Below, piece by piece: positions 41,181-59,142 of a stretch of DNA of 64,000 nt. Below the pieces are notes generated by a model. The model was not told the origin of the DNA, searched no databases, and saw only the letters and a list, made by a program, of their open reading frames with translations. The position numbers were made by a program, and so were the translations under genes. This DNA comes from a virus, in the IMG/VR virus record IMGVR_UViG_3300032046_000014, positions 20,304 through 84,303 of that record; one strand, 5' to 3'. Positions within the stretch are counted from its first letter, which is position 1. Each line of letters begins with the position of its first letter.

Positions 41181-42071
41181 ATGTTGAATGTTATGAGTGT
41201 TTGGCTAACCGTATCGCCGGAGGATCCGTACCTACAAACAATCGCTGTAGAATTCACTAATTATTGTAATCTGCAGTGTGACCCTTGTTATGGACAAAAT
41301 CCGAGACTCTATAAGGCCAGATCTAAAGGTTACATGACACTTGAAAATTTCCGCGTTTTGCTGGAACAATTAAAGAGGCTGCCAAGACTGAGAATTCTGA
41401 ACCTCAGCTACAATGGCGAATCATTGCTGCATCCGCAGTTTGAACTGATGGCTCAAGAGGCAAGGGCAGTTCTGCCTAACATGATGATAGGGATTGTTAC
41501 AAACGCAACTTTGATTACACGGTCGAAAGCTTTTGCCATTCTTAAGAACTGCAGCAGTATAATTGTCAGCATGCACCATGGCCCTAAGCTTGATGAAGCC
41601 TTAGACGGCCTCGAGACCCTTTCAACTATCAATCAGCAGGCCAAGAACCCGCGCAGCCTATTCGTTAACGTGATGGCTGACGAGTTCAAACATCATGAAA
41701 TCATAGCGTTGGCTGATCGAGTGAAGGAAAGGAAGATTGTTGTGCAGTTTAGGCGAGGGTGGCCGATGACGGAAGACTTGAAAAGGCCAATGCAACATCC
41801 GCAAACTACTACCACATGGACAGATGTTCCCGCGCCTTTTCACTCAGACAAATTCTGTCTGGCGCCCTTCTATTACACGGCGGTCCTCTGGAACGGCGAC
41901 ACGTTGCCGTGCTGTCACATATTAAACGGCGGCGACTTCAGTTTAGGCAACGTCTTCAACACCAGCCTTCTTGACGTTTGGAACGGCCAAGCCTATGGAA
42001 GACTACGGAACGAAAACTACGAGTCATCATGTCCTTGCGTTGCATGTGAAGTTCGTGAGCTTCCGGTTTAG
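41181..42071 (+). CDS. Radical SAM enzyme with SPASM/twitch domain
   Basis: CNLQCDPC, GESLLHP, TNAT, C...GDTLPCC...LGNV...WNG...C..C. Confidence 0.92.
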   Translation: MLNVMSVWLTVSPEDPYLQTIAVEFTNYCNLQCDPCYGQNPRLYKARSKGYMTLENFRVLLEQLKRLPRLRILNLSYNGESLLHPQFELMAQEARAVLPNMMIGIVTNATLITRSKAFAILKNCSSIIVSMHHGPKLDEALDGLETLSTINQQAKNPRSLFVNVMADEFKHHEIIALADRVKERKIVVQFRRGWPMTEDLKRPMQHPQTTTTWTDVPAPFHSDKFCLAPFYYTAVLWNGDTLPCCHILNGGDFSLGNVFNTSLLDVWNGQAYGRLRNENYESSCPCVACEVRELPV

Positions 42072-43188: not shown

Positions 43189-43262
43189 GGCGGTCTGTGC
43201 GGGAGTTGAACCCGCCTCAGTCGAGTGACAGTCGACCATCCGCACCGGCGGACTTACAAACC
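43188..43262 (-). tRNA. tRNA-Asp(GTC), CCA encoded
   Basis: Cloverleaf; GTCGA-CTGTCAC-TCGAC anticodon arm. Confidence 0.9.
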
Positions 43263-43268
43263 TTGATG

Positions 43269-43339
43269 TGCACCCGCCGGGATTTGAACCCGGCCGTCAG
43301 CGTGGAAAGCTGAGATCCTAGCCACTGGACCACGAGTGC
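43269..43339 (-). tRNA. tRNA-Gly(TCC)
   Basis: Cloverleaf; TCAGC-TTTCCAC-GCTGA; GGTTCAAATCC. Confidence 0.9.
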
Positions 43340-43351
43340 GATGATCCTGTT

Positions 43352-43513
43352 TGGTGCAGAGGACCGGATTTGAACCGGCGCGTCCGCCTTGCGGAAAGAG
43401 GTTTCTCACAGGCTGAACAGTCGTTCCTAACCGTCCTTAGCTTCGAGCTTACGACTTGAGCTTCGAGCTGGGTCTTAAGCCTCTCGCTTTCAGCCATGCT
43501 TGGCTACCCCTGC
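43352..43513 (-). tRNA. tRNA-Leu(TAA) with a 71-nt 37/38 intron (43403-43473), CCA encoded
   Basis: Long variable arm TCCGC/GCGGA; central BHB helix CTTA/TGAG. Confidence 0.88.
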
Positions 43514-43541
43514 ATTAACGGATGGTACTGATAGATCGTAC

Positions 43542-43617
43542 TGGTGGAAGCTGTGGGATTCGAACCCACGGCCTACTGCTTGCAAAGCAGCTGCTCATTC
43601 CGCTGAGCTAAGCCCCC
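43542..43617 (-). tRNA. tRNA-Ala(TGC), CCA encoded
   Basis: Cloverleaf with G3:U70. Confidence 0.92.
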
Positions 43618-43848: not shown

Positions 43849-44584
43849 ATGAATCCTCAAGAATTTGTCAAAGAATACAGTATCAGAAGCATTGCATGCT
43901 GCTTCAGTGGCGGCAAAGATAGTCTCGTGGCCACGCATCTGATGATGACCGCGCTTGGAGACAGATATGACATTGATAAGCACGTGGTCTACGCTGATAC
44001 CGGCTGTATGTTGCCTATTACAGAACCTTTCGTGGTCGACATTTGCAAAAGGTTCGGTTGGCCTTTGACGATTGTTCGCGGCTACTTCTTCGAGAAAGCC
44101 CATTAAGAATGGCATGCCCCGGATGAAGCATCGCTGGTGCTGCCATACCTGCAAAGTGGGCCCCATGCAAGAATATGTAAAAACTCTCAAGCCCCAACGT
44201 GCAGAGGTTCTCGGCCTAAGACGAGAGGAATCAGTGGCCAGGAGCAAGCTGCCGCAGATCCTCTATAAGAAAAGAGTGCCCTCATGGGGTTATTGTCCGC
44301 TCATAACATGGACAGGAAAGGAAGTGGCCAGTTACCTGAGAAGAAACGACTTGCCAGTGCCGCCTAACTATCGACTTGGTTTGAAAGAACCGTGTATGTG
44401 CGGTGTCTTCTCAACCAAGAAGCAGATGCTTATTCTCAAGGCGCAGTTTCCGGAGCTCTTCGACAAGTTCATACAGCTGGAGAAACAGTTCAGAAGCGGC
44501 GGCGCCTGCTTCTACTTCCACGACAAACCAGTGCGCGCCGGGGACCTAGCGAAACAGAAAACGCTTGGAGAACCTTTAAGTTGA
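43849..44584 (+). pseudogene. PAPS-reductase-family (PP-loop) protein split by a 1-nt frameshift near 44100
   Basis: SGGKDS and DTG in one frame; RWCC..CK, GLRREES.AR, PLITWT in the +1 frame. Confidence 0.8.
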
Positions 44585-45015: not shown

Positions 45016-45340
45016 CATTCTGCCTGAATGCCAGGCTCGCCCCGGTGCAATCATAGAATTCTGCAGAACAACATTTAAACATTTTCTATGTTGTCACTGT
45101 CTGGACAGACCACATCAACGTTGTAGGCGGCTGGGCAGATTCTTCTTCGACTGCAGCCGTCGCACCTGGTTTTTCTGTTTTCCGCAGTTTCTTCCCAGGA
45201 ATCATTCATGCTAATCCATCGTTTCTTTTCTTAAATCTTCTTCTCCGCTCTGAAATTAGAAAGATAGCTACAATAATAATAATCGGTGCTAAGTAATACA
45301 GAACGTCAATCATTCTTTCATCTAAACACTCTGGACTCTT

Positions 45341-45748
45341 CTATTCCTTTTTGAGATGTTGGCGTATCGATAGGGCATGCAAGAATTGTTCTAGGCAATC
45401 AATATGAAATCCGTTTGGTTCTAAAGAAGGCTTTTTCCCGTGTGATACTGCTGTCAAACCACAGAACAAGCATTCACGCTTATCCTTTTGGCTCTGGTCG
45501 TCTCGATAAAACATATCAAGCTTTGGAATCAAGGCGGCTTCCGGCAGATCCGGGAACTCTGCGCTCTCAAGAATAACCTGCAACACATTCGAAACCTGTC
45601 CGGACATGTACTGAACACGAACTACCCTCGCATCCACCGGTATATTCGTCTCAATCGACAGCCGCAATGGCAGCTCCTCTTCTGGAAGGTGGCCCTTAAG
45701 CACACCGCCCAACCATTCTACGCCCACTTCAACATACATCAACCTCAT
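45341..45748 (-). CDS. Hypothetical protein
   Basis: IPVDARVVRV, LESAEFP, C-terminal CxxC/HxxC. Confidence 0.55.
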   Translation of the reverse strand: MRLMYVEVGVEWLGGVLKGHLPEEELPLRLSIETNIPVDARVVRVQYMSGQVSNVLQVILESAEFPDLPEAALIPKLDMFYRDDQSQKDKRECLFCGLTAVSHGKKPSLEPNGFHIDCLEQFLHALSIRQHLKKE

Positions 45749-45754
45749 ATTTTC

Positions 45755-46336
45755 TCAGCTCCAATCGGACCGTATTTTCTGTTGTTGGATAAATTCTTTC
45801 CTGCCTTCTACACTACCGTTATATTGGACCCTTGCATAGTCGAGAAACATATGAAAAGCTTTGAGCACTTCATTTTCCAATACTTCAGAATCAAAGATTT
45901 TGGAAGGCGCTAATCTGTAGACGAACGTTTGAGTGTTTTCCTTCGACATTAAAGTGATGACCACGTCGTCTTGAAGGAGATATTTGCGCGCCCAAGACTC
46001 AAGCAATAATGCATTAGGAATCCTCCGCAGTCCCTTCAAGTCTGCTTCAGCAGCGGAGAAGCCAAGCCAGAAAGCTACATCCCTAAACTTGTTTCCCAAC
46101 ACAACATTCTCACTCATAGGCCGCTTCGCAAGATCCTCCACTGTTAACCTGTCAATATCAGCCGCAAGATAATACACAACCTTCCCCCAGCGCGCCAAAA
46201 AATTCTGCTGATCCGCAGTCAACACTTTCAACCATTCACGGTCAGAAATCGCCGGCCCTTCAGCTGGCCCCTTACAGAGATTCATCAACTGCCGAAGTTT
46301 TCTGCGAAGAATCTTGAAACAATCCTGGCCTATCAT
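45755..46336 (-). CDS. Hypothetical protein
   Basis: 193-aa ORF transcribed away from the first skew element. Confidence 0.55.
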   Translation of the reverse strand: MIGQDCFKILRRKLRQLMNLCKGPAEGPAISDREWLKVLTADQQNFLARWGKVVYYLAADIDRLTVEDLAKRPMSENVVLGNKFRDVAFWLGFSAAEADLKGLRRIPNALLLESWARKYLLQDDVVITLMSKENTQTFVYRLAPSKIFDSEVLENEVLKAFHMFLDYARVQYNGSVEGRKEFIQQQKIRSDWS

Positions 46337-46389
46337 ACGTCAGGTTCCTCAACACCGAAAACTCTTAAGATTCCACAGAATTATAAACT

Positions 46390-46945
46390 TTTCCCACAAC
46401 ACCAAAACTAAACAGCACAAACAACACAAACAGCACACACCACACATAAACACAATATCATAAAGTCACAAAAGACACAGAGCAGCAAAAATAGAAGAAG
46501 CAACAAAAGACCCTCCGGCACCGCGTCAACGCCGTACACAAAATACACGCCGTCCACAACATCAACACCGTACACAAAACTTGTTACCCACCCCATCACC
46601 TACTAACCGCCCCTTCACCCGCCTACCCATCCTACACCATCACCTACCAAACTCTCCAACACCACCCCAACAGTCCAAAAACAGAACCCACCAACCCACA
46701 AACACAATCCCCCCCACAACATAGCGGGTGGTTTAATTGTTTATTCAATTATTTGTCATTTTGGTTGGTTTGTTGGTTGGTTTGTTTTAGTGTTAACTGT
46801 TGGTTGGTTTTTCTGTTTGGTTCGGTGTTATGGTTGGTTCGGTTCGGGTCTCTTGTTTGGTCACTGCAGAAAATCGTTAGGCTTTTTCTGGAACGGTTTT
46901 CTGTGTATCGTTATGGTGAGTTTAATTGTTTATTATCCTTTTTTG
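46390..46945. other. AC-rich to GT-rich compositional switch element 1 (centre about 46722); candidate origin
   Basis: About 330 nt strongly depleted of G/T, then strongly G/T-rich; coincides with the gene-strand switch. Confidence 0.6.
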
Positions 46946-46959
46946 CGAAAAGTATATAT
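46946..46959 (+). promoter_or_regulatory. BRE-TATA promoter of the rightward early operon
   Basis: CGAAAAGTATATAT. Confidence 0.65.
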
Positions 46960-47022
46960 TCTTCCGTGTGTACCATAGTAGTGTAAAAGAAAAGCACAAC
47001 ACGGAAAAAAGGTGAGAAAAAA

Positions 47023-47118
47023 ATGACAGTAAAAAACTTCATCATTGGAACGCTTCTCATAAGCACAATGGCAGCGATAACCTACTATTTCACCTTTATG
47101 TATAGGTGGTTCGCATGA
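47023..47118 (+). CDS. 31-aa single-TM peptide
   Basis: AGGTGA RBS; MTVKNFIIGTLLISTMAAITYYFTFMYRWFA; ATGA overlap with the next gene. Confidence 0.55.
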   Translation: MTVKNFIIGTLLISTMAAITYYFTFMYRWFA

Positions 47119-47642
47119 ACAGCGATTACCTAAGCGTCAACAAGACAACTGGAAAACCACACTATACATACGGACAGAGCCAACAATGCCATGAACGGGA
47201 GCACGGACTGTTCTTTCATCCGAGAACGGGAGAAAAGATAGTTTGCCTAAGCGAAGCCAACATACGATATAAGACGATCTGGAAGCCAAAAGCGGAACGC
47301 ATGATCGTCAACGGTGACACGGTGATCAAGGTTCCAAGCACCGACAAGGTCAACGGCACAATACCGCAAACAGCTTATCACCGAATAGTAAACGCGATAA
47401 CGGAAACACCAGTCAAGGTATGTAAGACGGGAGACGGTCACACGTTCCTAGAGAATCCCGCAGCATGGCAGCTTAAAGCGGTCAACACTAAGAAGCACTT
47501 TTACGGAGAACGCAAGCATGGATACGCAAGCAAGGCAATAATCGAGGCACACCAACAACCAAGATGGAGACCGCCAGAAAAAGAAGCACCTCATAAGCTG
47601 AGGATAAGCAGCAGCGGTAAACTCAAGCTCTGCAGAATCTAA
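47115..47642 (+). CDS. Basic hypothetical protein
   Basis: ATG 47115 after a GGTGG RBS. Confidence 0.6.
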   Translation: MNSDYLSVNKTTGKPHYTYGQSQQCHEREHGLFFHPRTGEKIVCLSEANIRYKTIWKPKAERMIVNGDTVIKVPSTDKVNGTIPQTAYHRIVNAITETPVKVCKTGDGHTFLENPAAWQLKAVNTKKHFYGERKHGYASKAIIEAHQQPRWRPPEKEAPHKLRISSSGKLKLCRI

Positions 47643-47966
47643 GCGCAGAGTTGGCAAGCGGAACCTAAAAGGTTCATTCCGCAAGCCTCGAGCACTGGGA
47701 ACCTTTGAGAAGCCTAAGTTTCCCTTGGCGAGAAAATCCGCTGAGAAGCCATAGCTTTTCAATCCTAGTTATTCCCTTCGGAGAATAGCTACATACGCAA
47801 GCTCTTTGCGTACGACGGACTGACCCGTAGTGGAATGAAAGTCCGAATCCACGAAATTTTAGTAGTGGATCAAAAAGGGAGAAAATAATAAAGCCCAAGC
47901 CCATGGGCACACATCCAATTAATGACAAAGTTTTCATTAATCCGCAAAGCTCGACAACTTTGCGCT
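47642..47966 (+). ncRNA. Candidate large (325 nt) multi-hairpin ncRNA
   Basis: 12-bp closing helix AGCGCAGAGTTG/CAACTTTGCGCT, inner TCGAGC/GCTCGA, at least eight hairpins. Confidence 0.75.
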
Positions 47967-48043
47967 AAGGTGAAAACTTAAACAAAGATATTATACGATG
48001 AGGTCGCCAGTAGCGCGGCGACTGAGCTAAGCTCCTAACATTC

Positions 48044-48108
48044 TTTTTTCTATTCTCCCTAGCAAGGGATTGACAATGACCGTGAAACTCGGTCGAAAAT
48101 AGAAAAGG
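48044..48108 (+). ncRNA. Type III hammerhead ribozyme, U3-A8 variant; predicted cut after C48055
   Basis: Stem III TTTTCTAT/ATAGAAAA, UUC site, stem I TCCCT/AGGGA, core TTGACAA+T, stem II GACCG/CGGTC, GAAA. Confidence 0.8.
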
Positions 48109-48224
48109 ATGGTGATATAAAGAATGTTAAGCGGAAACCAAGCTCGAAAACTTCGCCTTAGAATACTCGGCGAAGACCAGTACAAGATCCTCATGCAACT
48201 GCATGGACGGAAGGTGAAGACGCA

Positions 48225-48467
48225 ATGAGAATACCAGTAGGCAATAGTTGTTCATGGCTTCCAGCTGAAGCGCTCGCAAAGATCACGAAGCTGCAGCTGT
48301 ACCGTGAAAGATGCATGAACTGGAACGTCAAAGCCTTCATGCCTAAGCAGGAAGCGGCGTTGGTAAGAGTTCCTATGACAGCGAAGCCACAGGAAACATT
48401 AGCGAGCCTGTTTGAACGATTGCAGATTCTCACAGACAAGATGGATGAAGGGCTGCAAAAATGTTGA
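48225..48467 (+). CDS. Hypothetical protein
   Basis: AGGTGA RBS. Confidence 0.55.
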   Translation: MRIPVGNSCSWLPAEALAKITKLQLYRERCMNWNVKAFMPKQEAALVRVPMTAKPQETLASLFERLQILTDKMDEGLQKC

Positions 48468-48868
48468 ATGCAAACCAAGAACTTGCTCGGAACATAGCGC
48501 ACTTACAGGAAGTCTACAATAGCGATTGCGCTTTCTGCAATCGGTACGGTGACTGCCACCCATGTCCCGACCCGGATCTCCTGCAGAAACGAGCCGACGA
48601 ATGGGCAGCAGAATATGTCCTCACCGACATCGTACCATTACTGTTGAAGCAAATCCAAGAGCTCCAGTTTAAAGCTGGCCTCACAGGCAAGACCAAGCTA
48701 GTGCATGTCACAGTGTACATGGATGAAGAAGGCAACATAGTTCTCGGCGGCTACGGATGGCAAGAATTCTACAACTATGAACAGGTTCAGACTCAACGCT
48801 GGCGAGATCTTGAAGCTGAACGGATAAGACGTGCAGTCGAACCCTTGCCAATGCTGGTCGGACCCTAA
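48461..48868 (+). CDS. Hypothetical protein with Cys cluster
   Basis: CAFC....C.PC. Confidence 0.6.
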   Translation: MLNANQELARNIAHLQEVYNSDCAFCNRYGDCHPCPDPDLLQKRADEWAAEYVLTDIVPLLLKQIQELQFKAGLTGKTKLVHVTVYMDEEGNIVLGGYGWQEFYNYEQVQTQRWRDLEAERIRRAVEPLPMLVGP

Positions 48869-48881
48869 CCCTTCCTTTTGT

Positions 48882-48954
48882 GGACCGTAAGTTGAGCAGC
48901 CTCCACGACGGCGCGGTCTGGAACAGGATTATTCACCTGTACTAAGTGCTCAGC
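48882..48954 (+). ncRNA. HDV-like self-cleaving ribozyme 1; predicted cut 5' of G48882
   Basis: P1 GGACCGT/GCGGTCT with G1.U; P2 GTTGAGCA/TGCTCAGC; P3 GCC/GGC; L3 TCCACGAC; P1.1 CC/GG; P4 ACAGG/CCTGT; J4/2 ACTAAG (catalytic C48942). Confidence 0.92.
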
Positions 48955-48987
48955 AGATTACCTGCAGGTGCAGGAGGTGAAACAAAG

Positions 48988-49821
48988 ATGATGAAAAAGC
49001 AAGTTGCGATACTTCTGGTTGCTGCATTGGCAACTGTACTTGTAGCTTCAGCCATAGTCAGCGCATGTGATCCTCCCAGATGTCCACCGGGTCCTCAAGG
49101 ACCAATTGGACCAGCAGGTCCTAAAGGTGACAAAGGAGATGTAGGAGCAACTGGCCCAACAGGACCTCAAGGTGCAACAGGAGCAACAGGACCAGAAGGT
49201 GCAATAGGACCAATGGGTTCTCAAGGACCCAGAGGAATAAGAGGACCGCAAGGTGAAACAGGATCTCAAGGGCTAACAGGACAGGCTGGAATCAACGGAA
49301 CCGATGGAGTTAACGGAACTGACGGAGTCAACGGAACAGATGGAACTGACGGAAAAGACGGTTCCACTTGGTATAATGGAAACGGCACAGCAACTTCAGA
49401 CTTAGGCAAGGATGGAGACTACTACCTACAAACAACAAACGGTGACATCCTCTACAAGATAGAAGGAACTTGGACTTTCCTGATGAACATCAAAGGCTCC
49501 GATGGAAGCAATGGACTCAACGGACTCGATGGACTCAACGGACAAGACGGCATCGATGGGAAAGACGGAATTGATGGTCTCAATGGAACAGATGGAGAGG
49601 ATGGTAAAGATGGACTTGACGGTCTTAACGGACAAGATGGACTCGATGGAGAAGATGGATTCAACGGACAAGACGGCAATGATGGAACAGACGGAATGTC
49701 TGCACAATCTTCAAGCGGATGCGATTGCAAACTATTGATTCTAATGCTCTTCCTGACCATGATAGCAATCTGGATAATCGCAATCAAAATGCTAAGGTGC
49801 AAGTGCAAGCAGCCCAACTAA
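48988..49821 (+). CDS. Collagen-like surface protein (signal peptide, Gly-X-Y repeats, C-terminal TM anchor)
   Basis: GGAGGTGA RBS; two Gly-X-Y blocks; several NGT sequons. Confidence 0.88.
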   Translation: MMKKQVAILLVAALATVLVASAIVSACDPPRCPPGPQGPIGPAGPKGDKGDVGATGPTGPQGATGATGPEGAIGPMGSQGPRGIRGPQGETGSQGLTGQAGINGTDGVNGTDGVNGTDGTDGKDGSTWYNGNGTATSDLGKDGDYYLQTTNGDILYKIEGTWTFLMNIKGSDGSNGLNGLDGLNGQDGIDGKDGIDGLNGTDGEDGKDGLDGLNGQDGLDGEDGFNGQDGNDGTDGMSAQSSSGCDCKLLILMLFLTMIAIWIIAIKMLRCKCKQPN

Positions 49822-49843
49822 AACCAACAGACTCTTTCTTTGT

Positions 49844-49901
49844 GAGTTGCAAGCTGAGACGCCTCCACGTGGCGCAACTTGGAATACGCGAAGAGCTCAG
49901 C
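49844..49901 (+). ncRNA. Minimal (P4-less) HDV-like ribozyme 2; predicted cut 5' of G49844
   Basis: P1 GAGTTGC/GCAACTT with G1.U; P2 GCTGAG/CTCAGC; P3 GCC/GGC; L3 TCCACGT; GG; J4/2 CGAA. Confidence 0.85.
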
Positions 49902-49928
49902 AAAACGATTGGAGTGTGAAAAAAGAAA

Positions 49929-50105
49929 ATGACTGTAGTATTCTTGGTGCAACGACTGGTCCACGGCAGATGGCAAAGCATCGGAGCTGTCTTCTGCAGG
50001 TACGACCGCAAGGCAGCACTACACCGCGCGCATGAAAACCCAATCATGCATGAACTACTGGCTGGCCACTGTGAAGACGTAGAGTTTTTGAGGTGGCTAC
50101 TGTGA
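49929..50105 (+). CDS. 58-aa hypothetical protein
   Basis: GGAGTGTGA RBS; manual translation MTVVFLVQRL... Confidence 0.5.
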   Translation: MTVVFLVQRLVHGRWQSIGAVFCRYDRKAALHRAHENPIMHELLAGHCEDVEFLRWLL

Positions 50106-50287
50106 AGACACTGAAGATCCCGACGCTTGTGAAGATCATGGGCGGCTGGGTTATGATCCAGCTCGGCAGCTTCCAATGGTGCAGCATAGGCGATCCACTC
50201 GGCGGAATCCTAGCCGTGACAGTCGGTCTCTCCCTGTTTCTTTGGGGACTATCAAACATAACCAACAATTGTGAGGTGATAGAATGA
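50093..50287 (+). CDS. Small membrane protein
   Basis: Two hydrophobic segments. Confidence 0.5.
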   Translation: MATVKTLKIPTLVKIMGGWVMIQLGSFQWCSIGDPLGGILAVTVGLSLFLWGLSNITNNCEVIE

Positions 50288-50640
50288 CAAGTATAACCGT
50301 AGAGGTTAAGGAAGAAGTCTGGCATGATCCCATCGAAGACGCGGAACTCGTGATACTGAGATTCAAGAATCCAGAAGAGCTAATGATGGCAGCGCATGAA
50401 GGCGTCACCGACATCGGCCTCTGGAAGAAGAAGGCCGGGATCGCGGTGCCGCTCCACGTGCAGAACCTCGTGGAATACCTGATGCAAAGACGCGAGATCA
50501 TAACTGCAAAAGCAGTCACAAATCTTCTCTGCCATTCACTGACAGTCCTACCGATCCTGGAAGGCATACAAGAAGCTCTCGACCTCGAATACTGTGAAGC
50601 GGAAGACAAGCTGCACCTGCAAGGAGGCGAACAAGTATGA
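50284..50640 (+). CDS. Hypothetical protein
   Basis: GAGGTGA RBS. Confidence 0.6.
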   Translation: MTSITVEVKEEVWHDPIEDAELVILRFKNPEELMMAAHEGVTDIGLWKKKAGIAVPLHVQNLVEYLMQRREIITAKAVTNLLCHSLTVLPILEGIQEALDLEYCEAEDKLHLQGGEQV

Positions 50641-50786
50641 AGCCGGAACTCACAGAACTCAGCCGCATAATCTGCAAACCCTGCAAAGCCTCGGACTACG
50701 AAGACTGCGCTCACTGCAGAATCCACGTACTCGTCAACAAGCTAGACTGCTGAGAGCAAGAAGCCGGCCGTTCAAAGGTCGGCAAT

Positions 50787-50847
50787 CCAAGCGTAATCGC
50801 TTGGCAGCAGGAAACCGCTGAGCCCAAATTGAAGGGCTGAAAAAGAG
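50787..50847 (+). ncRNA. Three-hairpin RNA motif, copy A
   Basis: Homologous to 57551..57611 with compensatory changes. Confidence 0.7.
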
Positions 50848-51007
50848 GCCAATGATCTTTTGGAGTGTGAAAGAAAGATGGAAAAGAAATCTACACGTTT
50901 GTGCGACCAGATACAAATGGTCAAGTCGTACACCATCAAAGAACCAGACGGCGGCAAAACAGTCGTCTATGTTAGTAGTCAACCGTGGAGAGAGAGGTGA
51001 GTGAAAG

Positions 51008-52675
51008 TTGACATGGCTAGATAAGTCAATCATAGAACGGCTCTGCCAAAGAAGCTGCGGCTTCATCTTCCAGACAGAAGACAAAGTGCGAATTGAACAG
51101 CTGATCAACTCGGCAAGACAATGCAACCTAAGCAAAGCCTTCAAGGCAAACTACGCAAGCATCCTCGAATACAATATCCTCCGCAGAGAACTTAAAGAAC
51201 TCAAGCCGACCAGCGAAACCATACTCGCGCCGGAACCTGGCAAGTCATACTTGCAGATCATAGACGAACGACTACACCAAACAGCCTCGCGTACAGACCA
51301 GCCGCAAGGCGCTCTCGTCATAATCCACTGGGTCCTAACCAAAGCCCACGCTGACAACATAGCGGACATGCTTGCCAGCTGGAGCCAAGACAAGACAATG
51401 TACAAGACCACGAGCACAGTATTCGTGTTCACGAGCGACGAAGGATTATTCAGCGAAACAGTCAGACGCCTATGCTACACAACTGAGATCGAGCCAGGCT
51501 CAGACGCAGAGTACCGGGACGTTCTCGATACACTTGCAGCTAAGATGAAGCCAGCCTTGAAGCTCAACGTCACAGAACAGTTTGTGCAAGCGCCAAGAGG
51601 ATTAACATTGCATCAGACGGAAACAGCAGCCTTGAAAGGAATCTACACGAACCCGGAAAGGCAGTTGTCACTGCCGCCGTTCACTGACCTCAAGATACAG
51701 ATACTGCGTTCAAGCGGCCTAGAATTCATAACGCCGAGCTTCGGCTATGAAGCAATAGGCGGCTTCGAAAGTATCAAGCAAGAATTCGCTGACTTCGTAG
51801 TGGCGCCATTGCAAGACCCGGCGAAAGCATTGTACTATGGCCTCGGCAGCCCAAGAGGAATCATCGAGTATGGACCTCCAGGCGTCGGCAAAACAGTGTT
51901 CGCCATAGCCACAGCCAAGGCGTTAGAACTGCCAATGGTAAAGCTTACACCTGCAGACCTGTACCGCAGCCTCGTAGGCGAATCAGAATCCCGAGTGAAA
52001 CACTTGACGGAACTCATTGAAAGCCTCTCGCCAATCGTAGTGTTCATAGACGAAGTAGACCAGCTGTTCATCGCAAGAAACCAAGTTATGATGACGGACT
52101 CAGGAGTCAACAGACGCATACTCAACGGCTTGCTTGACTGGCTAGGCCAACCAAGCAGACGAAGCTTCGTTATCGGAGCAACCAACTGCATAGAACAGAT
52201 GGACGAAGCAGCAACCCGGGCAGGAAGGTTCGACGAGATCCTCTTCATCCCGTACCCGAACCGCAAAGCCAGAGAAGACATCTTCAAGATACAATGCACT
52301 ATGACGCACAAGATACCGGTAGCCAAAGAACTCAGCTACAAAGAGCTCGCAGCAGAAAGCCAGTTGCTAAGCGGCGCAGAAATTGAGAAGTGGTGCATAC
52401 TCGCATCACGAGCAGCAATGCGTCACGGCGACAAATACGTCACTCAAGACCACTTCAAAGACACGGTAAGCCAGATAGTTATTGACCCGAAGAAACGCTG
52501 GGATGATCTGCAGGTGCAGGTGAAACGTCTTAGGACGATGAGCAACGTGAACGTACCCTTGTTGGAAGAGAGCCTGCAAGAATTCTATGATTCAGAGAAA
52601 GAAGTAGGCGATGAAAGAACAAGTAGTTTCCTGAAGATAATAGGTGAAAATGGAACGGAGGGAACAGCACTATGA
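51008..52675 (+). CDS. AAA+ ATPase (Ycf46-like: degenerate N-terminal and intact C-terminal AAA domain)
   Basis: GPPGVGKT, VFIDEVD, GATN, RAGRFD. Confidence 0.9.
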   Translation: MTWLDKSIIERLCQRSCGFIFQTEDKVRIEQLINSARQCNLSKAFKANYASILEYNILRRELKELKPTSETILAPEPGKSYLQIIDERLHQTASRTDQPQGALVIIHWVLTKAHADNIADMLASWSQDKTMYKTTSTVFVFTSDEGLFSETVRRLCYTTEIEPGSDAEYRDVLDTLAAKMKPALKLNVTEQFVQAPRGLTLHQTETAALKGIYTNPERQLSLPPFTDLKIQILRSSGLEFITPSFGYEAIGGFESIKQEFADFVVAPLQDPAKALYYGLGSPRGIIEYGPPGVGKTVFAIATAKALELPMVKLTPADLYRSLVGESESRVKHLTELIESLSPIVVFIDEVDQLFIARNQVMMTDSGVNRRILNGLLDWLGQPSRRSFVIGATNCIEQMDEAATRAGRFDEILFIPYPNRKAREDIFKIQCTMTHKIPVAKELSYKELAAESQLLSGAEIEKWCILASRAAMRHGDKYVTQDHFKDTVSQIVIDPKKRWDDLQVQVKRLRTMSNVNVPLLEESLQEFYDSEKEVGDERTSSFLKIIGENGTEGTAL

Positions 52676-53067
52676 GTCACACAACAGTCTACCTAACCAA
52701 ACTCGGCAACCTTAACCCGCAAATGCTCAAGGCAGCAGTTGAATACTTCGCCAAGATGCTTGGAGCCACCGTCTTCCATGGCACGATCCACAATGAATAC
52801 GATGACGAGACCAGACAGATAATCGTCGGATTCAAAACCGACGACCTGCCCCATGGCATAGGCTTCAACTTGGACCACGCCGGCAACCTCGTAATCGTCG
52901 GCGACCCATACGACCAAGCGGAAGCATACCAAAAATTCATTGACATGGCCACCAGCGGCCAGATCACCAACGCCTATCAGATCGCAATGAACGCGCAAGA
53001 GAACAATGAAACAGTAGATTCAAGAGTCGAAGGCGACAGCATCATAATGGAAGTGAACCCACAATGA
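52672..53067 (+). CDS. DUF1257/Ycf35-like protein
   Basis: MSH.T..T.L, IGF, GDPY, AY; follows the AAA gene. Confidence 0.6.
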   Translation: MSHTTVYLTKLGNLNPQMLKAAVEYFAKMLGATVFHGTIHNEYDDETRQIIVGFKTDDLPHGIGFNLDHAGNLVIVGDPYDQAEAYQKFIDMATSGQITNAYQIAMNAQENNETVDSRVEGDSIIMEVNPQ

Positions 53068-53246
53068 AAACCACAATAGTTCTCACGAAGGACGGAAAGA
53101 TCCATACGGACGCTGAAGGCTTCAACGGACCACAATGCATGATAGAGATCCAGAAGTTGCTCGCCGGTTTGGTCACGCAAGAAGTAGACACGAAACGGAA
53201 GAATGAGTATTATGCAAACGAAACAGAAGCTTCAACTGGTGCTTAG
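53064..53246 (+). CDS. DUF2997-like protein
   Basis: KDGKI..DAEGFNGPQC...K.EYY. Confidence 0.7.
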   Translation: MKTTIVLTKDGKIHTDAEGFNGPQCMIEIQKLLAGLVTQEVDTKRKNEYYANETEASTGA

Positions 53247-53381
53247 AAGCAACGCGATAGTTCCTGTTGGTTACATCGATGACCAAGAGGAACACCGCGT
53301 AGACGAGCTCCTAAAGAACATAGAAGTCACAGGCAAAACACAAGTGCCTTGTGGCTAAAACAGGTATGGAGTGTGAAAAGA

Positions 53382-54521
53382 ATGACAGATGAACAGCCTA
53401 AACTGCCAGACATAAACGTTCCAACATTGCCCTTGCCAGTCGACAGCAACCGTGTTGACCAGTTCCTAGCACACTTGCCACCGCCAGAACACACCGAATT
53501 CGAATTACTCTGTATGAAACGGCCAGTCATGCTGCAGGGCATACTGTTCGACATGCACTTCCACGGCGACGACCTCTTGAAAACGCAGGCGCCGGGACTC
53601 GGCGAAGACGTCTTCAACCAACTGAAGAATCATCTTGAAGACCAGATGATAGTCCTAGACCGCAAGTATGCACACAGAGAAACAAGCGGAGCCGCAAGCT
53701 GGGAAGCATACGGCAGCCGCAGCAAAGAACAGGAAGACGGCACTGACAGAACTCGCAGCATAAAAATCAGAGTGTTCCCGCGCAGCTTCTATAACAAGTT
53801 AGCCAGCTTCAAAGACCGCTTGGTCACAGAGCGACTGAGCAAATGCATAATGATTGAAAGCTACAAGAGCGGCAGATACAAGGAATGCATATACATTCTG
53901 CCCTATGAAAGCGCGCCCAGCATGGTAGCGCTCATAGAGGCGGTCAACCGGGAAATCGACATGTTCAACAAGGAAGTACAAGAGTACCTCGGCAGCCAAG
54001 ACTACCAGAACGTACGCGGAGTGCTTGAACGGTTCCACATGGAACATTTAGTAGACAAGAAATCCTTTATGATTCCGCATGTTGAGTACAGACTGATCCC
54101 GCTTGCATTGAATCCGAACGTAGTCATGGACATGGTTAAAACTAAGGAAGGCACATTGAACGAGAAACTGCAGCAAGAGTATGAATCAGGAAGACAACTG
54201 CTTCAAGAGAGCTTGGAACGTCAAAGCCAAGAGCTTGTTACAGCTGCATTAGCAAAGCTGAAGAAGGAAATCGACGCCAACGTGACACAAATAGTCATGA
54301 AGATGAAGACTGACCCTGACCGTGTGAAGGCTGACTTGGACAACATCAGACGAAAGGCAGACATGATCGGGCTTGAAGCATTAGCAGACAGCGTCATCAA
54401 CCCATTGAAACTGCTCATCGACACGCCAGACAGAGTCGAAGAACTATTCGGAGTCTCAGTGCTCGGCACGTTGCCTGAAGCAGTTGACGAAAGAATCAAA
54501 GCCCTGCTCAAAAGCCTCTAA
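53382..54521 (+). CDS. Helical hypothetical protein (possibly DUF3150-like)
   Basis: Context after the AAA/DUF1257/DUF2997 genes; YILP motif, coiled coil. Confidence 0.5.
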   Translation: MTDEQPKLPDINVPTLPLPVDSNRVDQFLAHLPPPEHTEFELLCMKRPVMLQGILFDMHFHGDDLLKTQAPGLGEDVFNQLKNHLEDQMIVLDRKYAHRETSGAASWEAYGSRSKEQEDGTDRTRSIKIRVFPRSFYNKLASFKDRLVTERLSKCIMIESYKSGRYKECIYILPYESAPSMVALIEAVNREIDMFNKEVQEYLGSQDYQNVRGVLERFHMEHLVDKKSFMIPHVEYRLIPLALNPNVVMDMVKTKEGTLNEKLQQEYESGRQLLQESLERQSQELVTAALAKLKKEIDANVTQIVMKMKTDPDRVKADLDNIRRKADMIGLEALADSVINPLKLLIDTPDRVEELFGVSVLGTLPEAVDERIKALLKSL

Positions 54522-54538
54522 CCTACAGGTGAAGCGAA

Positions 54539-54736
54539 GTGAACAAGAAACAGTTCAAGAAAGCGATTAGAAGCCTGCCTCTTGGAGCACAGCAGACAAT
54601 GGCAAGAGCGCTCTCAGGTGAAGAAAGTTACCTAGTGAGAGTATGCACTTGCGGTTGCAAGTACGTGAGCCGAGACTACGGCTTCCATTATGAGCCCTTG
54701 GAGAGATGCCAGAAACATCTGAGCAAAGGGAGGTGA
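54539..54736 (+). CDS. Small Cys-rich protein
   Basis: CTCGC...CQKH; CTACAGGTGA RBS. Confidence 0.55.
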   Translation: MNKKQFKKAIRSLPLGAQQTMARALSGEESYLVRVCTCGCKYVSRDYGFHYEPLERCQKHLSKGR

Positions 54737-54744
54737 GATAAAGA

Positions 54745-55143
54745 ATGTCAGCGCAACAGAGCTACTATGCAGAACAGTTCCACGTGAGAAGTGAGACGCG
54801 GAACAAATGCAACAGGTGTAGAAACAAGTTTCCCAACGCTCAAGACAGCTGCCCTAAATGCGGAAGTACCGACGTCGCTCCGCTCGAACACACCGTCAGT
54901 CTCAGACATGATGGCGGATGGGAATGCGGATGCGAAAGCTGGATCTTCGGACGCAAACGACATTCGTCAGGCTGGGGATGCAAACACATAGAAGAAGTCC
55001 GCGCAAGTTATGATGCTGCAGCTGTAGCCGCAAACCGTAGAGCAGGGCAACGCACCGTCATCCGAACCGCCGAGAGCACAATCGAACTCGCCGAAGACCC
55101 CGATGGTCGCATCAAAGGCTTCCTCGACAAACTCGACAAGTAG
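54745..55143 (+). CDS. SWIM zinc-finger protein with zinc ribbon
   Basis: CNRC/CPKC; CGC...CKH. Confidence 0.75.
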   Translation: MSAQQSYYAEQFHVRSETRNKCNRCRNKFPNAQDSCPKCGSTDVAPLEHTVSLRHDGGWECGCESWIFGRKRHSSGWGCKHIEEVRASYDAAAVAANRRAGQRTVIRTAESTIELAEDPDGRIKGFLDKLDK

Positions 55144-55251
55144 GCTTCCTGCAATTCCGAGGGACTGTATGCTGGTCGTTTCATCCTAGCAGAGTCTGCA
55201 GTGCCGCCAAAGTCGGTCTAGCGAGCCCTGATGACGAGCAGAGAGAAGCCT
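55143..55251 (+). ncRNA. Candidate intergenic structured RNA
   Basis: GGCTTC/GAAGCC and CTGC/GCAG closing stems; internal GACT/AGTC and TGCTGG/CTAGCA. Confidence 0.45.
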
Positions 55252-55379
55252 GCTTCCCAATTTCATACACCTGTATTTTCCTTCAGAATTCTTAAGCCCC
55301 ACACGCCTGTGGGGAGGCTGGACATCCTGCCACGGGAACGGTGGCGAAACAGCCAATAAATGGAGTGTGAAAAGAAAGC

Positions 55380-55574
55380 ATGAAAACTTTTGGAAAGAAG
55401 CCTGAGTCCTCCGCCCGCGCCCACGTCGTTGTCAGATGGTGGGAAGCTGGCAAGCTCAGGTACTTGACCGTTGGCACGGTGTATGCTGCACCTGCAGAAG
55501 TCGCCAAGTATCTTGAAGAGAAGCTTGCTGAACACTGGGGAAGCGGGGTGAACCACACCCCTACAGGTGCATGA
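55380..55574 (+). CDS. Hypothetical protein
   Basis: GGAGTGTGA RBS. Confidence 0.55.
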   Translation: MKTFGKKPESSARAHVVVRWWEAGKLRYLTVGTVYAAPAEVAKYLEEKLAEHWGSGVNHTPTGA

Positions 55575-55704
55575 CCTTGGCGACCCATTGTGACTGGTGC
55601 GGCAATGAGATTGAAGGAACTCCCATCAGAGCCTACGAAAAACGGGATGGCTGCTGCCTTGAACTTTCACGAAGCCCCATCAAAGGCGGCAAACCAATAG
55701 TCCT

Positions 55705-56046
55705 ATGCAGGAGGTGCGCAGAATGAAAAACCCGCAGCTTAAAATCTGGAACCTAAAAGCAGTTGAAACCGCACTGCGAAACAGAAGAAACAGCTCAACC
55801 GCCTACACCATAAGACAAGTGCTAGACCTCCTCTCCTCCAACTGGGACACCGCCATGACCCCTGAAGAGATACAGCTAAAGTTTGCTGAAGCACTCAACA
55901 ATGCAACAGACGAACTAGCCGAAGCACTCGCAGACTTCGACGCTTGCATTTCTCCAGACGAAGAAGCGTACGAGGCAATGCGAAGACACGTTGAAGAAGC
56001 ACAGAAGCATTTGCTGCCGCTCCTACAGGTGAAGAATCATGCCTGA
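55705..56046 (+). CDS. Hypothetical helical protein (true start probably 55723)
   Basis: GGAGGTG RBS. Confidence 0.55.
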   Translation: MQEVRRMKNPQLKIWNLKAVETALRNRRNSSTAYTIRQVLDLLSSNWDTAMTPEEIQLKFAEALNNATDELAEALADFDACISPDEEAYEAMRRHVEEAQKHLLPLLQVKNHA

Positions 56047-56167
56047 ACAATCCTGCCTAACCTGCAAACACAGGGGCGACTGTGAAGACACGGCTGAAAC
56101 GACAACCCACTGCATAGACTACGAACCTGACTACGAACCTGCAACAACAAACTACAGGTGAATCAGC

Positions 56168-56455
56168 ATGAGCGAAGAAGCCGTCAAGTTCAAGCCGCTT
56201 GAAGGCTACGTCTACTATCCTGAAGGCACACCTCGACAGGTAATCAGCGTTCTCCAACATGCCCGCGCCGAACACACGCGACTCCACCTCTGCTACGGCG
56301 ACCCAGCTACAGGTGAAGACTGGAACGAAATCTACGATTGCACGGGCATCATCGGCCGCACCACGGGCCCAGAGCCCATTCCCATCCTCCTCTACAACAA
56401 GCGCAGCCTCGGCGGAACAGCAGTCCTCACCAAAAACATCATCAAAATCACATGA
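56168..56455 (+). CDS. Conserved phage-type hypothetical protein
   Basis: YGDP.TG.DW.E...G.IGRTTG...IPILL...SLGG. Confidence 0.65.
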   Translation: MSEEAVKFKPLEGYVYYPEGTPRQVISVLQHARAEHTRLHLCYGDPATGEDWNEIYDCTGIIGRTTGPEPIPILLYNKRSLGGTAVLTKNIIKIT

Positions 56456-57250
56456 AACAAGGTACACCTACACTCGAACTCACAAAGAATCCCAAGGGGC
56501 ACATGGCAGGCCAACACACTCCACCTGCCAAGCCCCACAACCCAGAACAGTCGCCAACCATCCCTACCTACACCTGCACCAACAAACTCACCATCAAACA
56601 CTCACCATCCCTCACAACCACGCATGGGGTTTTGTGTTTAGTTTTTGTTGTTGTGTTGTGGTTGTGTTGGTTTTGTTGGTTGTTCTTGTAGGGGTTGTTC
56701 TTGTTGGGAAGGGTTGTGGTTTTGGTTGGTTGGTGTGTGTTGGTTTGTTTGTTGTTGTTTGTTTGGTGTTTTTCTTCTTGTTTGGGCGTAATGTTTATAG
56801 TTTTGTGTGTGGTGTTGTTCTTGTGGATGGTGTTTGATTGAAGCCGTTGATTTTTAGTGAGGAAGATTTTCGTCTTCGTCTTGTGGATGGGCATGAGGAG
56901 TATGATGTGTGTGAGGATAGGCGTATGTTGCATGTGGAGTTTTCTGGGGAGAAGAGTTTTTGGAAGATTGAGAAGGTTGTGGTGTTGGAGCAGAGCTTCA
57001 CGGTTATGCTTTCACGGGTGAAGAGGGAAGAGGAGAAGGGAAGGGATGGATAGTGCTCGTAGGCTTGAGTTGCTTTGTGTTGTTGTTGTTTGTTTGGAGC
57101 GTAGGTGTAGTCCGAATGTGGTTTTGGAGAGGCTGCTTGGGTTGCAGGTGAAGGGAGAAGAGCTTGTGGAGGTTGCCGCTGCGGCTTCGGCTTTGCTGTT
57201 TGACCAGTTGGAAGTGGAGTATGGTGGCAGGTGGGCGGCGGAGGCGCGGG
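56455..57250. other. AC-rich to GT-rich compositional switch element 2 (centre about 56622)
   Basis: Same architecture as element 1; GT bias decays through the downstream genes. Confidence 0.6.
56838..57053 (+). CDS. Hypothetical protein with GT-shifted codon usage
   Basis: Normal amino-acid composition; chained overlap with the next genes. Confidence 0.45.
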   Translation: MKPLIFSEEDFRLRLVDGHEEYDVCEDRRMLHVEFSGEKSFWKIEKVVVLEQSFTVMLSRVKREEEKGRDG

Positions 57251-57297
57251 AACGGGCAAGAGCGTTAGTTGCAGGTGTAGGAAGTGAACAGGGATGA
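57046..57297 (+). CDS. Hypothetical protein with GT-shifted codon usage
   Basis: Overlapping start/stop chain. Confidence 0.45.
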   Translation: MDSARRLELLCVVVVCLERRCSPNVVLERLLGLQVKGEELVEVAAAASALLFDQLEVEYGGRWAAEARERARALVAGVGSEQG

Positions 57298-57560
57298 TGC
57301 AGGATAGGCCAGTTGACGAGCGTTTGAAGGAGATGTTGGATAGGGTAGAAGCGGCGGCGAAGAGACTTAGAAAATGGAAGCGGAGAAACATTGTAAGGGG
57401 ATGGCATCCGACTAAAGAGAAGTGCAGCGAATGCAGCAGGCCGCTCCCGTACAACAATGATAGGAAACGAAGCCTTTGTAACCCGTGCAGCGCAAGAAGA
57501 CAAAGCCGCTTGAACAGGCAGAAGCACCTGCAACAAAAGGAGAGAGAAAACCAAGCGTAA
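57294..57560 (+). CDS. Basic zinc-finger protein
   Basis: CSEC...CNPC. Confidence 0.6.
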   Translation: MMQDRPVDERLKEMLDRVEAAAKRLRKWKRRNIVRGWHPTKEKCSECSRPLPYNNDRKRSLCNPCSARRQSRLNRQKHLQQKERENQA

Positions 57561-57611
57561 CTCGTTTGGCAGCAACGGAGCCGCTGGGCACAAGTGAGTG
57601 CCGAAAAAGAG
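57551..57611 (+). ncRNA. Three-hairpin RNA motif, copy B
   Basis: Homologous to 50787..50847. Confidence 0.7.
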
Positions 57612-57643
57612 CTCCCTCTAAAAATGTGAGGTGCAACGAAAAA

Positions 57644-58519: not shown

Positions 58520-58543
58520 CCCCAAGGCTACAGGTGAAAGAAG

Positions 58544-58765
58544 ATGGTGACTAAAGCAGTGAAGATAGTGACCGAATGGGTTGACGGCGGAGTAATCGCG
58601 GACGCACTTGCCGAGAACCTGAAGATACGCGGCGTACCCGCCTCCGTCAACAACATGAAAGGCTTATGGCTGGCCACCTTAGAAAGCCTACCCAGAATGT
58701 TCGACGATGTTCCCGACGAAAGAATCATCAGGGAAGCCCAGAAGCTACAGGTGAAGAAGCCATGA
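58544..58765 (+). CDS. Hypothetical protein
   Basis: CTACAGGTGA RBS. Confidence 0.55.
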   Translation: MVTKAVKIVTEWVDGGVIADALAENLKIRGVPASVNNMKGLWLATLESLPRMFDDVPDERIIREAQKLQVKKP

Positions 58766-59142
58766 TCATCTACGTTGTAACCCACGTCAGCGCAGGAATC
58801 CATCAGGGAATTCACGCCTTCAGCAAGAAGAAAGACGCAGACGCTTACGAGAAGTATCTCTGCCAACAAAACAGTGTACCCTATGAAGCCGCAGCCCGCG
58901 ACCAATACTACGAAGAGAACGAAGTTGACGACGATATTATCCAGTGGACAGTGGAAGTAGACCAGCTCCTACAGGACAGCATGCCCCACCTCAAAACCAA
59001 AGTAAAGAAGACTGGCACAACGATCGAGGTCATTGACTACGGCGAAAATTTTGTTCCCCGCTACTGGTCAAAACCAAACCGACAAGGAGTAAGCCATGGA
59101 TACCAGCCTGACAAGCTGGAACTACAGGTGAAGAACCCATGA
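58762..59142 (+). CDS. Hypothetical protein
   Basis: CTACAGGTGA RBS before ATG 58762. Confidence 0.55.
   Translation: MIIYVVTHVSAGIHQGIHAFSKKKDADAYEKYLCQQNSVPYEAAARDQYYEENEVDDDIIQWTVEVDQLLQDSMPHLKTKVKKTGTTIEVIDYGENFVPRYWSKPNRQGVSHGYQPDKLELQVKNP

Follow-up and report, generated by a model that had tools for sequence, protein, structure and literature searches.

GRINS (genetic repeats with intense nucleotide skews) are duplicated coding regions of more than 500 bp and more than 80% identity that are found mostly in bacterial polyketide synthase (PKS) genes and occur with both skew signs per strand (PMC8256042). In vertebrate mitochondrial DNA (mtDNA), an AC/GT strand bias that reaches third codon positions has been ascribed to deamination of the strand that is single-stranded during displacement replication (PMC1794132, PMC3269014). 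We analyzed a switch from AC-rich to GT-rich DNA in a viral sequence, bases 20304-84303 of the single 84,303-bp IMG/VR record IMGVR_UViG_3300032046_000014. This stretch of 64,000 nucleotides (nt) is referred to as the window, and coordinates are given in its numbering. We found that the switch at 46721/46722 and its two skewed arms (element 1) form one of two related and conserved non-coding boundary elements which bracket a block of early genes. The record probably derives from a tailed archaeal virus that belongs to a small clade.

An earlier note, made from the letters of this DNA alone, had described an extreme flip at about 46722, at the divergence point of the genome, with a polarity that matches a bidirectional origin. 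Base counts bear out the flip. Positions 46390-46721 hold 138 A, 134 C, 25 G and 35 T (81.9% A+C), positions 46722-46945 hold 28 A, 21 C, 61 G and 114 T (78.1% G+T), and 46722-46860 taken alone is 84% G+T. We expressed the step as the G+T fraction of the 150 nt to the right minus that of the 150 nt to the left, and used 200 shuffles within 2-kb blocks as a null. The step at 46721 amounts to 0.65, compared with a maximum of 0.31 among the shuffles and with a background of 0.25 for the third-largest step genome-wide, the next after the two switches. The flip is thus stronger and more local than ordinary skew, as had been claimed. Composition steps back at the ends of the arms, by -0.24 at 46392 and by -0.36 at 46947. 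The arms do not form an exact inverted repeat (0 inverted pairs in the element), and the GT arm abuts the presumed main early promoter, ending at a rightward promoter-like box; on both points the note was right. A short leftward operon on the minus strand (45341-46336) stands on one side of element 1, the rightward early genes on the other. Gene orientation does diverge here, but only locally: plus-strand genes (44072-44584 and 41181-42071) resume further left of the operon, and the wording 'divergence point of the genome' therefore goes too far.

The notion of a single central switch had to be given up. A second switch of the same polarity, with an even larger step of 0.74, lies at 56622/56623 in a zone spanning 56425-57181 (element 2). 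Keto skew over 100 nt goes beyond +/-0.5 at exactly two places in the 84.3-kb genome, and both are AC-to-GT. The elements measure 0.4-0.8 kb each, their centres are 9.9 kb apart and the bracketed block comprises 9.7-9.9 kb.

We collected the loci of relatives with profiles of the AAA ATPase and the terminase. Within 1.14 Mb of such loci, the sole other step of at least 0.4 was found in contig L094, whose AAA ATPase and large terminase (TerL) are 50% and 46% identical to those of the window. With the terminase side on one flank and the first early gene's homologue on the other, it is syntenic with element 1. A switch of the element 1 type was also seen in L110, a strain that is 90-96% identical to the window, and in L111 and L114. 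The complete 84,165-bp relative G001 (TerL 51%, AAA ATPase 43%, capsid 74% identical; overall about 45-50% protein identity) has exactly two switches, at 20921 and 30633, which are 9.7 kb apart and enclose the same gene order. The terminase and the first early gene's homologue flank the first of them, and the second is flanked, as in the window, by the counterparts of genes 54745 and 57644. No GT-to-AC switch was seen in 1.3 Mb of relatives: one of at least 0.4 was found neither in the 1.14 Mb of relatives' loci nor in either genome; the strongest negative steps do not go beyond -0.36, and these mark the arms' own outer edges. The polarity is unaltered by reverse complementation and is therefore a real property of the element, and the preservation of both place and polarity at about 50% protein identity indicates that the arrangement is not the product of drift.

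Conservation extends to the sequence itself next to the centres. The adjoining 60-80 nt share true similarity between G001 and L111 (z = 8-12) and between L094 and L111 (z = 8-10). In G001, elements 1 and 2 have an AC-side motif in common (z = 5.3), and the GT arms of the second elements of the window and of G001 are alike (z = 3.9). Elements 1 and 2 of the window share only a short centre motif, and their overall likeness does not exceed that of composition-matched shuffles (z = 0.2-0.3). Searches of IMG/VR with the 17-nt core motif and with a profile of gene 53349 returned known relatives only, nine other matches to the motif being due to chance. Single-protein locus searches in IMG/VR, a phage DNA search and a TerL profile search of genome contigs gave no match. 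Tandem repeats were seen at two places in the relatives. Three tandem units of about 34 nt stand directly before the AC arm of the second element of G001 (L116:10400-10520), and tandem repeats of about 32 nt form the end of the L094 contig (L094:16040-16169), some 800 nt past the last early-block gene, which may be an assembly break or a genome end.

The features of both elements and of the neighbouring genes are collected in Table 1. Each element consists of a sequence-conserved core, of about 140 bp in element 1, and of two arms that retain composition alone. The arms are dyad-symmetric in composition, in that the strand running 5' to 3' outward from the core is G+T-rich on both sides. In the core of element 1 a C-run gives way to a short hinge of mixed G/C, and this to AT-rich DNA of about 35 nt (46729-46765, about 75% A+T) just right of the centre. 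This stretch, a possible unwinding element, is kept in L110 and is not clearly present in all relatives. While core positions 46667-46806 are about 95% identical to L110, adjacent DNA is 74-89% identical. The sequence TTGTTTATT is found again in the GT arms of G001 and L111. The 14-mer GAAAAGTWTATAWT has just two matches in the window, 46380-46393 (minus) and 46947-46960 (plus), which face outward, and the looser motif RAAR-N-W-T-W-TA occurs four times (6098+, 22866-, 46380-, 46949+). As the arms end exactly at outward-facing TATA-like boxes, the tracts lie upstream of both promoters and not in leaders. Away from the core the arms are repetitive and variable. The distal AC arm contains tandem repeats (a 9-mer five times and an 18-mer three times), the GT arm holds 43 repeated 7-mers where 13.9 are expected, and repeated 7-mers exceed composition-matched shuffles in 9 of 12 arms. 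The AC arm of L110 is unalignable distally and about 170 nt shorter (about 165 nt compared with 330 nt) next to the same GT arm. Taken together, the internal repeats, the length polymorphism and the conserved core make the arms look like two-letter simple sequence that grew by slippage out of a conserved seed. G-quadruplexes were considered as a shared feature and discarded: by eye, runs of three or more G are plentiful in L094 and near some centres and absent at others.

Table 1. Features of the two AC-to-GT elements, the block between them and the neighbouring genes (window coordinates; G+T3, G+T fraction at third codon positions; BRE, transcription factor B recognition element)
Feature	Position	Strand	Description
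Leftward BRE/TATA-like box (GAAAAGTTTATAAT)	46380-46393	-	Outer edge of AC arm; 44 nt before ATG of the gene at 46336
Distal AC arm, element 1	46394-46666		G+T 0.10-0.25; composition-only, repeat-rich, strain-variable
Sequence-conserved core over the switch point 46721/46722	46667-46806		About 95% identical to L110; blocks common to L094, G001 and L111
GT arm, element 1	46722-46945		78% G+T; middle (46807-46909) keeps composition only
15-nt direct repeat GTTTAATTGTTTATT, copy 1	46731-46745	+	Just right of the centre; copies 100% identical, 189 nt apart
15-nt direct repeat, copy 2	46920-46934	+	12 nt before rightward TATA-like box
Rightward BRE/TATA-like box (GAAAAGTATATATT)	46947-46960	+	Outer edge of GT arm; presumed early promoter; conserved in L110
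Early-gene block between the elements	46722-56455	+	First early gene, ribozyme-separated cistrons, collagen-like gene, AAA ATPase, genes 52672, 53349, 54745 and 56168
AC arm, element 2	56456-56622		78% A+C; begins at the stop codon of gene 56168-56455
Non-coding GT arm, element 2	56623-56837		92% G+T; T5 runs at 56642 and 56769
Gene left of element 1	45341-45748	-	G+T3 0.60
Gene left of element 1	45755-46336	-	G+T3 0.62
Gene left of element 2	56168-56455		G+T3 0.22, the genome minimum
Gene right of element 2	56838-57053	+	G+T3 0.90
Gene right of element 2	57046-57297	+	G+T3 0.81
Other genes	elsewhere		G+T3 about 0.25-0.58, most 0.30-0.45

The earlier note had itself named conserved proteins encoded by the tracts as a refuting case. 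Stop-poor two-letter DNA does yield chance open reading frames (ORFs) of up to 77 amino acids (aa), but element 1 contains none above 77 aa in any frame and no ORF crosses it. Furthermore, the GT arm differs from that of L110 by indels of 1, 2 and 4 nt, which rules out a conserved ORF. The absent crossing ORF and the frame-breaking indels also dispose of low-complexity coding sequence, and a mis-join of the assembly is ruled out by several independent contigs that cross the centre (see below). An explanation by either of the two deserves next to no weight.

In this lineage the skew extends from the elements into the synonymous sites of flanking genes, as the third-position values in Table 1 show. 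To the right of element 2, G+T declines smoothly from 0.97 to 0.40 over about 800 nt, by about 57440, and two overlapping small plus-strand genes (56838-57297) lie within this fading gradient. In the G/T-skewed flanking genes codon positions 1 and 2 look normally coding-like, and antisense ORFs there are without periodicity. Gene 56838 is an ORFan known from identical copies only; a birth out of stop-poor GT DNA is as possible as the recoding of an older gene.

We then set the locus against the systems to which it comes closest. GRINS are defined by correlated mean absolute GC and TA skews above 0.15, and the arms show skews of about 0.5-0.7 with matching sign (base fractions C 0.40, G 0.08, A 0.42 and T 0.10 in the AC arm; G 0.27, C 0.09, T 0.51 and A 0.12 in the GT arm). 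The correlated skews, the abrupt change within a few hundred nt, the peak at third positions and the link to recombination are all shared with GRINS (PMC8256042). Unlike GRINS, the tracts are mostly non-coding, with third-position G+T of 0.60-0.90 confined to the flanking small genes, one of them an ORFan; they are not mutual duplicates, elements 1 and 2 lacking the identity of more than 80% over more than 500 bp within a locus (z = 0.2-0.3); and they always run from AC to GT round a conserved core at fixed syntenic viral sites. The vertebrate mitochondrial control region resembles the locus as a major non-coding region with divergent promoters, a conserved centre and hypervariable, repeat-bearing flanks. 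In contrast to the genome-wide, one-strand bias of mtDNA, the bias described here is restricted to 0.2-0.8 kb, changes sign at the core and appears at two places, and any D-loop, primer RNA or origin there would be hypothetical. A top-strand change from AC to GT across the start point is also found at the skew switch of bacterial oriC, where the leading strand is keto-rich (PMC2099444). Origin skew is weak and chromosome-wide, however, whereas the switch is extreme and local, the genome-wide sign is opposite and neither initiator boxes nor an initiator gene were found. Finally, an AC-rich arm, a G/C centre and a GT-rich arm between divergent units, with the G-rich strand pointing along transcription, recall the divergent strand-switch regions of trypanosomatids and GC-skewed R-loop promoters. 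The trypanosomatid regions are eukaryotic Pol II starts of several kb; in the virus the promoter-like boxes stand at the outer ends of the arms, and the arms lie upstream of them and are not transcribed by them. The literature searched contained no description of paired AC/GT elements in viruses, which is not proof of their absence.

Variation between strains was studied in the Logan contigs of four sediment metagenome runs (X1-X4); these data are contigs and represent few haplotypes. A contig of X1, probably the source sample, covers 45-58 kb without any difference. The centre of element 1 is also crossed by an X4 contig from another study, by a 64-nt X2 contig and by the IMG/VR contig L110. 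A centre that no reads span would have pointed to a mis-join, as the earlier note stated, and at the contig level this concern is settled. Breaks in the X2, X3 and X4 contigs fall at 46696-46716 and 56451/56452. Between them, the block (46713-56452) shows 0-9 base differences from the window over 9.7 kb despite different flanks, and the flanks of strains with a near-identical block differ by 4-26%. The short leftward operon with its two genes (45341-46336) is hypervariable between strains, and the left flank occurs in at least two forms. One form, which is L110-like, lacks gene 45755-46336, has other sequence in place of the AC arm and is about 80% identical over 45348-45576. In the X4 contig, where the distal AC arm of element 1 is missing or replaced, this L110-like flank is followed by a block that resembles that of the window, with 4 differences in 8.7 kb, although L110 itself is just 89% identical to the window in the block. 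The X4 contig therefore represents a recombinant with a crossover inside element 1. A wider strain-variable island was noted at 45210-46667, in which 45348-45648 is 74% identical in L110, compared with about 90-96% elsewhere, and gene 45755-46336 is missing.

Strain differences also adjoin element 2. Its AC arm carries a polymorphic 6-nt TACACC insertion after 56462. At 56452 the X2-X4 strains read on in frame into a longer C-terminus of gene 56168, as does L094, whereas the window ends in ...KIT; this indicates that the window strain carries a deletion beside the AC arm of element 2 (56451-56455). Of the nine block differences seen in X2, seven cluster at 54867-55591, 1.0-1.75 kb left of element 2 (six T>C, one G>A). 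Four of them fall in gene 54745-55143, all at third codon positions, and the middle 6.4 kb of the block is without differences. The cluster has the look of a patch of strand-coordinated mutation or of a small tract that was imported. Two further observations concern the assemblies of the block. In all runs the collagen-like gene (49143-49627) is broken up into numerous small contigs with joints and loose ends, its Gly-X-Y region being highly polymorphic or ambiguously assembled. At 50433-50453 and 55214-55234, matches of about 21 nt to a foreign contig ('skips 4760') were seen in all four runs and probably come from another organism sharing a short word.

Our preferred reading, which we put forward tentatively, is that strands open or DNA synthesis begins here and moves outward, with the site being an origin or lying at a terminal-repeat edge and doubling as a recombination joint. 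From the observed anatomy, conservation, polarity, repeats, breakpoints and depth ratio we infer strand opening, deamination as the cause of the skew and a link to replication. The core would be the start of outward DNA synthesis or opening, either in a bubble of the bidirectional origin type or at a nick, at the boundary of the early or terminal-repeat block, from which strand displacement is primed. The outward 5' to 3' strand would repeatedly be single-stranded, and the amino bases A and C on this exposed strand would deaminate and become G and T. Slippage would then enlarge the two-letter tracts, and the openings would make the elements joints at which strains swap the early block.

If the skew is a footprint of single-strandedness, the exposed strand should be the one that runs 5' to 3' away from the core on each side. 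It might be exposed as the lagging-strand templates of a bidirectional bubble, as 5' flaps or by 3' to 5' gap widening from a nick on either strand, or as the non-template strands of outward transcription. A Chi-like arrangement with GT-rich 3' tails from breaks distal to each arm would fit as well. A double-strand break at the centre with canonical 5' to 3' resection, and likewise a fusion of two telomeres, would be expected to leave GT-to-AC polarity, and both were rejected. The polarity supports outward synthesis or opening in general and not an origin in particular. Judged from the sequence, the replication origin that the earlier note had proposed at element 1 appears partly supported: the local polarity speaks for it, as does a centre that is non-coding, conserved and spanned by contigs, and so does the abutting rightward promoter-like box. 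Against an origin stand the two elements 9.9 kb apart in place of one unique point, and the same polarity would be expected from strand displacement at a terminal edge, outward transcription or Chi-like tails. Keto skew across the genome tracks the coding strand with a sign opposite to that of the local switch, and cumulative keto skew over the whole genome consequently peaks near element 1, where origin polarity would want a minimum. The repeat search that returned no inverted pair in element 1 also found no arrays resembling origin recognition boxes (ORBs), and no iteron array save the one 15-nt direct repeat pair. Initiator or replicase genes (orc1/cdc6, rep, primase, helicase, polymerase) were not recognized among about 70 ORFs.

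Other data count against the preferred reading. The genes to the right of element 1 show no third-position G/T enrichment, and in G001 the skew is not seen to spill into coding sequence. Conserved AC-only and GT-only motifs in the proximal arms argue that part of the composition is selected and not mutational. The X2 changes match deamination of the bottom strand if the X2 state is the derived one, although their direction is not polarizable. In addition, strains sharing the block could by themselves yield both a doubled depth and the contig breaks, and strain mixing is certain because the graph branches at both edges and alternative flanks exist. A further version of the deamination idea would treat the cores as fixed starts of a local strand-directed deamination zone, likened to the mitochondrial D-loop and to immunoglobulin switch regions. 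A and C of the outward strand would be converted to G and T over up to about 1 kb, stop-poor GT tracts would give rise to new ORFan genes on the outer flanks, and strains would be driven to exchange the early block as a cassette. We give this version rather little credence.

In T5-like and SPO1-like phages, early genes lie inside long terminal repeats, and T7 carries strand-asymmetric heptamer arrays beside its terminal repeat. The locus resembles these phages in its early block of about 10 kb, the special sequences at its edges, a depth of twice that of the flank and short strand-asymmetric repeats by the edge; the AC/GT dyad composition is not known as a feature of those phages, and here a repeat is a candidate only. 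Contig-mean depth of the block relative to the right flank was 21.4/11.0 = 1.95 in X2, 38.5/18.5 = 2.08 in X3 and 23.8/11.0 = 2.16 in X4, and the mean depth of 16 of the mixed X4 contig fits single depth over 7.1 kb of flank plus double depth over 8.7 kb of block. This constant ratio of about two in three samples suggests that the block is possibly present twice per genome. The early block might then be a long direct terminal repeat of about 9.7 kb that is collapsed in assemblies, with 46721/46722 as the junction of unique and repeated DNA and the left virion end, and with element 2 just inside the unique region beside the other repeat edge. The shifts in depth at 46696-46716 and just past 56452 are in line with this, as are the bracketing of the G001 block by two elements, the end of the L094 contig about 800 nt after the last block gene and the presence of two ligases, which would fit linear ends. 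However, a collapsed repeat gives no branch in the graph, yet contigs break at both edges and alternatives exist at 56452. Sharing of the block between strains can imitate a twofold depth in what are contig means, and the right depth edge lies at least about 170 nt left of the centre of element 2, so that the elements are not equivalent edges. The 84,303-bp record contains no terminal repeat, although contigs cannot reveal the ends of a molecule. We regard a terminal repeat as possible but doubtful; it overlaps with outward synthesis because the duplication of such a repeat needs nick-primed displacement synthesis.

The elements might instead act at the boundaries of transcription units, insulating them and terminating transcription. 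RNA from either side would read through a C-rich, G-poor and structure-free AC tract and then a GU tract with U-runs, the GT arms being upstream regions of the next promoters. The number of U-tracts governs transcription termination in archaea (PMC8716108; reviewed in PMC13675443). Within 50085-63001, the plus strand has runs of five or more T only in element 2's GT zone, where there are four, with one pair in the non-coding arm and the other (56851, 56957) in the adjoining GT-rich gene; G001 has a T6 and a T5 at the centre of its element 2. T-runs are depleted on sense strands, and the arms end at TATA-like boxes, of which the window has only four. A transcriptional role is hence plausible for element 2, where several runs of four or more U would follow the 3' end of a unit. 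Element 1, in contrast, is upstream of both neighbouring units and between divergent promoters, with nothing to terminate, and the synonymous-site G/T enrichment downstream, the length polymorphism of the arms and the strain breakpoints would all be left unexplained. As a general account, this is unlikely. Recombination as the primary function, with the core as a patch of homology, the GT strands as 3' tails favoured by RecA/RadA after breaks distal to the arms, and the early block swapped as a cassette, would accommodate the recombinant haplotype with its crossover in element 1 as well as a block that is near-identical where flanks differ by 4-26%. Gene presence or absence and deletions adjoin both AC arms. 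RecA prefers TGG-repeat or GT-rich single-stranded DNA (ssDNA) resembling Chi (PMC3763553), and intense keto/amino skew is tied to gene conversion in GRINS (PMC8256042). Recombination may nevertheless follow from some other function or from the hypervariability of adjacent DNA, and it is seen in few haplotypes and in contigs only; as a primary function it is less likely than a transcription boundary. Degenerate tandem repeats, the excess of repeated 7-mers, the length polymorphism and the unalignable distal arms would also be expected of functionless, microsatellite-like two-letter tracts grown by slippage beside promoters. Two elements at the same place and with the same polarity at about 45-50% protein identity, a conserved core, proximal motifs common beyond composition and the consistent absence of the opposite polarity render this improbable. 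A long imperfect hairpin, in which read-through RNA or ssDNA folds the AC arm onto the GT arm as, for example, a processing or priming structure, appears more improbable again. About 110-120 inter-arm pairs with -113 to -130 kcal/mol are predicted and are explained by composition alone: the fold energy of element 1 has z = -2.3 to -3.1 against arm-wise shuffles, but the number of inter-arm pairs is no higher than in these controls. The elements of five relatives share no consensus base pair and hence no conserved fold, an Rfam E-value scan of 39.5-58.5 kb detected tRNAs only and no match at the elements, and the AC arm measures 330 nt or about 165 nt in strains with the same GT arm.

The window encodes a large terminase, a portal protein and a prohead protease, together with a 1689-aa end-repair polyprotein, a second ligase, a C5 methylase and a PAN/Cdc48-like AAA ATPase. 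Relatives of the ATPase are found on contigs assigned to bins of Bathyarchaeia, Nitrososphaerota and other Thermoproteota, in keeping with a probably archaeal virus. For the first early gene, the AlphaFold model has a predicted local distance difference test score (pLDDT) of 41, too low for a structure search. Across dozens of archaeal viral contigs, gene 53349-54521 (390 aa) is constantly accompanied by the AAA ATPase and gene 52672; among ESM Atlas entries its product resembles DUF3150-like viral proteins only, and a PDB sequence search was empty. Four tRNAs are clustered at 43191-43617 (minus strand), where a 159-nt Rfam match (43355-43513) is probably an intron-bearing tRNA. Genes at 41181-42071 and 44072-44584 of the window and at L120:20-862 and 1550-2131 encode radical SAM/SPASM, PAPS-reductase-like, DUF5131 and CxxCxxCC proteins and several methyltransferases, a set that hints at a DNA or RNA modification pathway. 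Runs of five or more T are scarce on sense strands, with 8 compared to 22 A-runs in plus-strand genes and 18 compared to 57 in minus-strand genes. This depletion and the rarity of TATA-like boxes fit very long operons.

For uncultured archaeal tailed viruses, hardly anything is known of how replication begins, genome ends are defined and gene modules are exchanged, and the elements offer a physical handle on these processes: a pair of 0.4-0.8 kb that can be recognized by composition alone and that coincides with the breakpoints between strains. If the skew is a footprint of single-strandedness, the locus would be one of the rare examples, mitochondria aside, of a local mutational gradient that reveals a site of DNA opening directly from sequence, and it would extend keto/amino skew of the GRINS type, so far one of coding repeats in bacteria, to viral DNA that is non-coding. 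Should the block prove to be a terminal repeat, the elements would mark the genome ends of this group of viruses.

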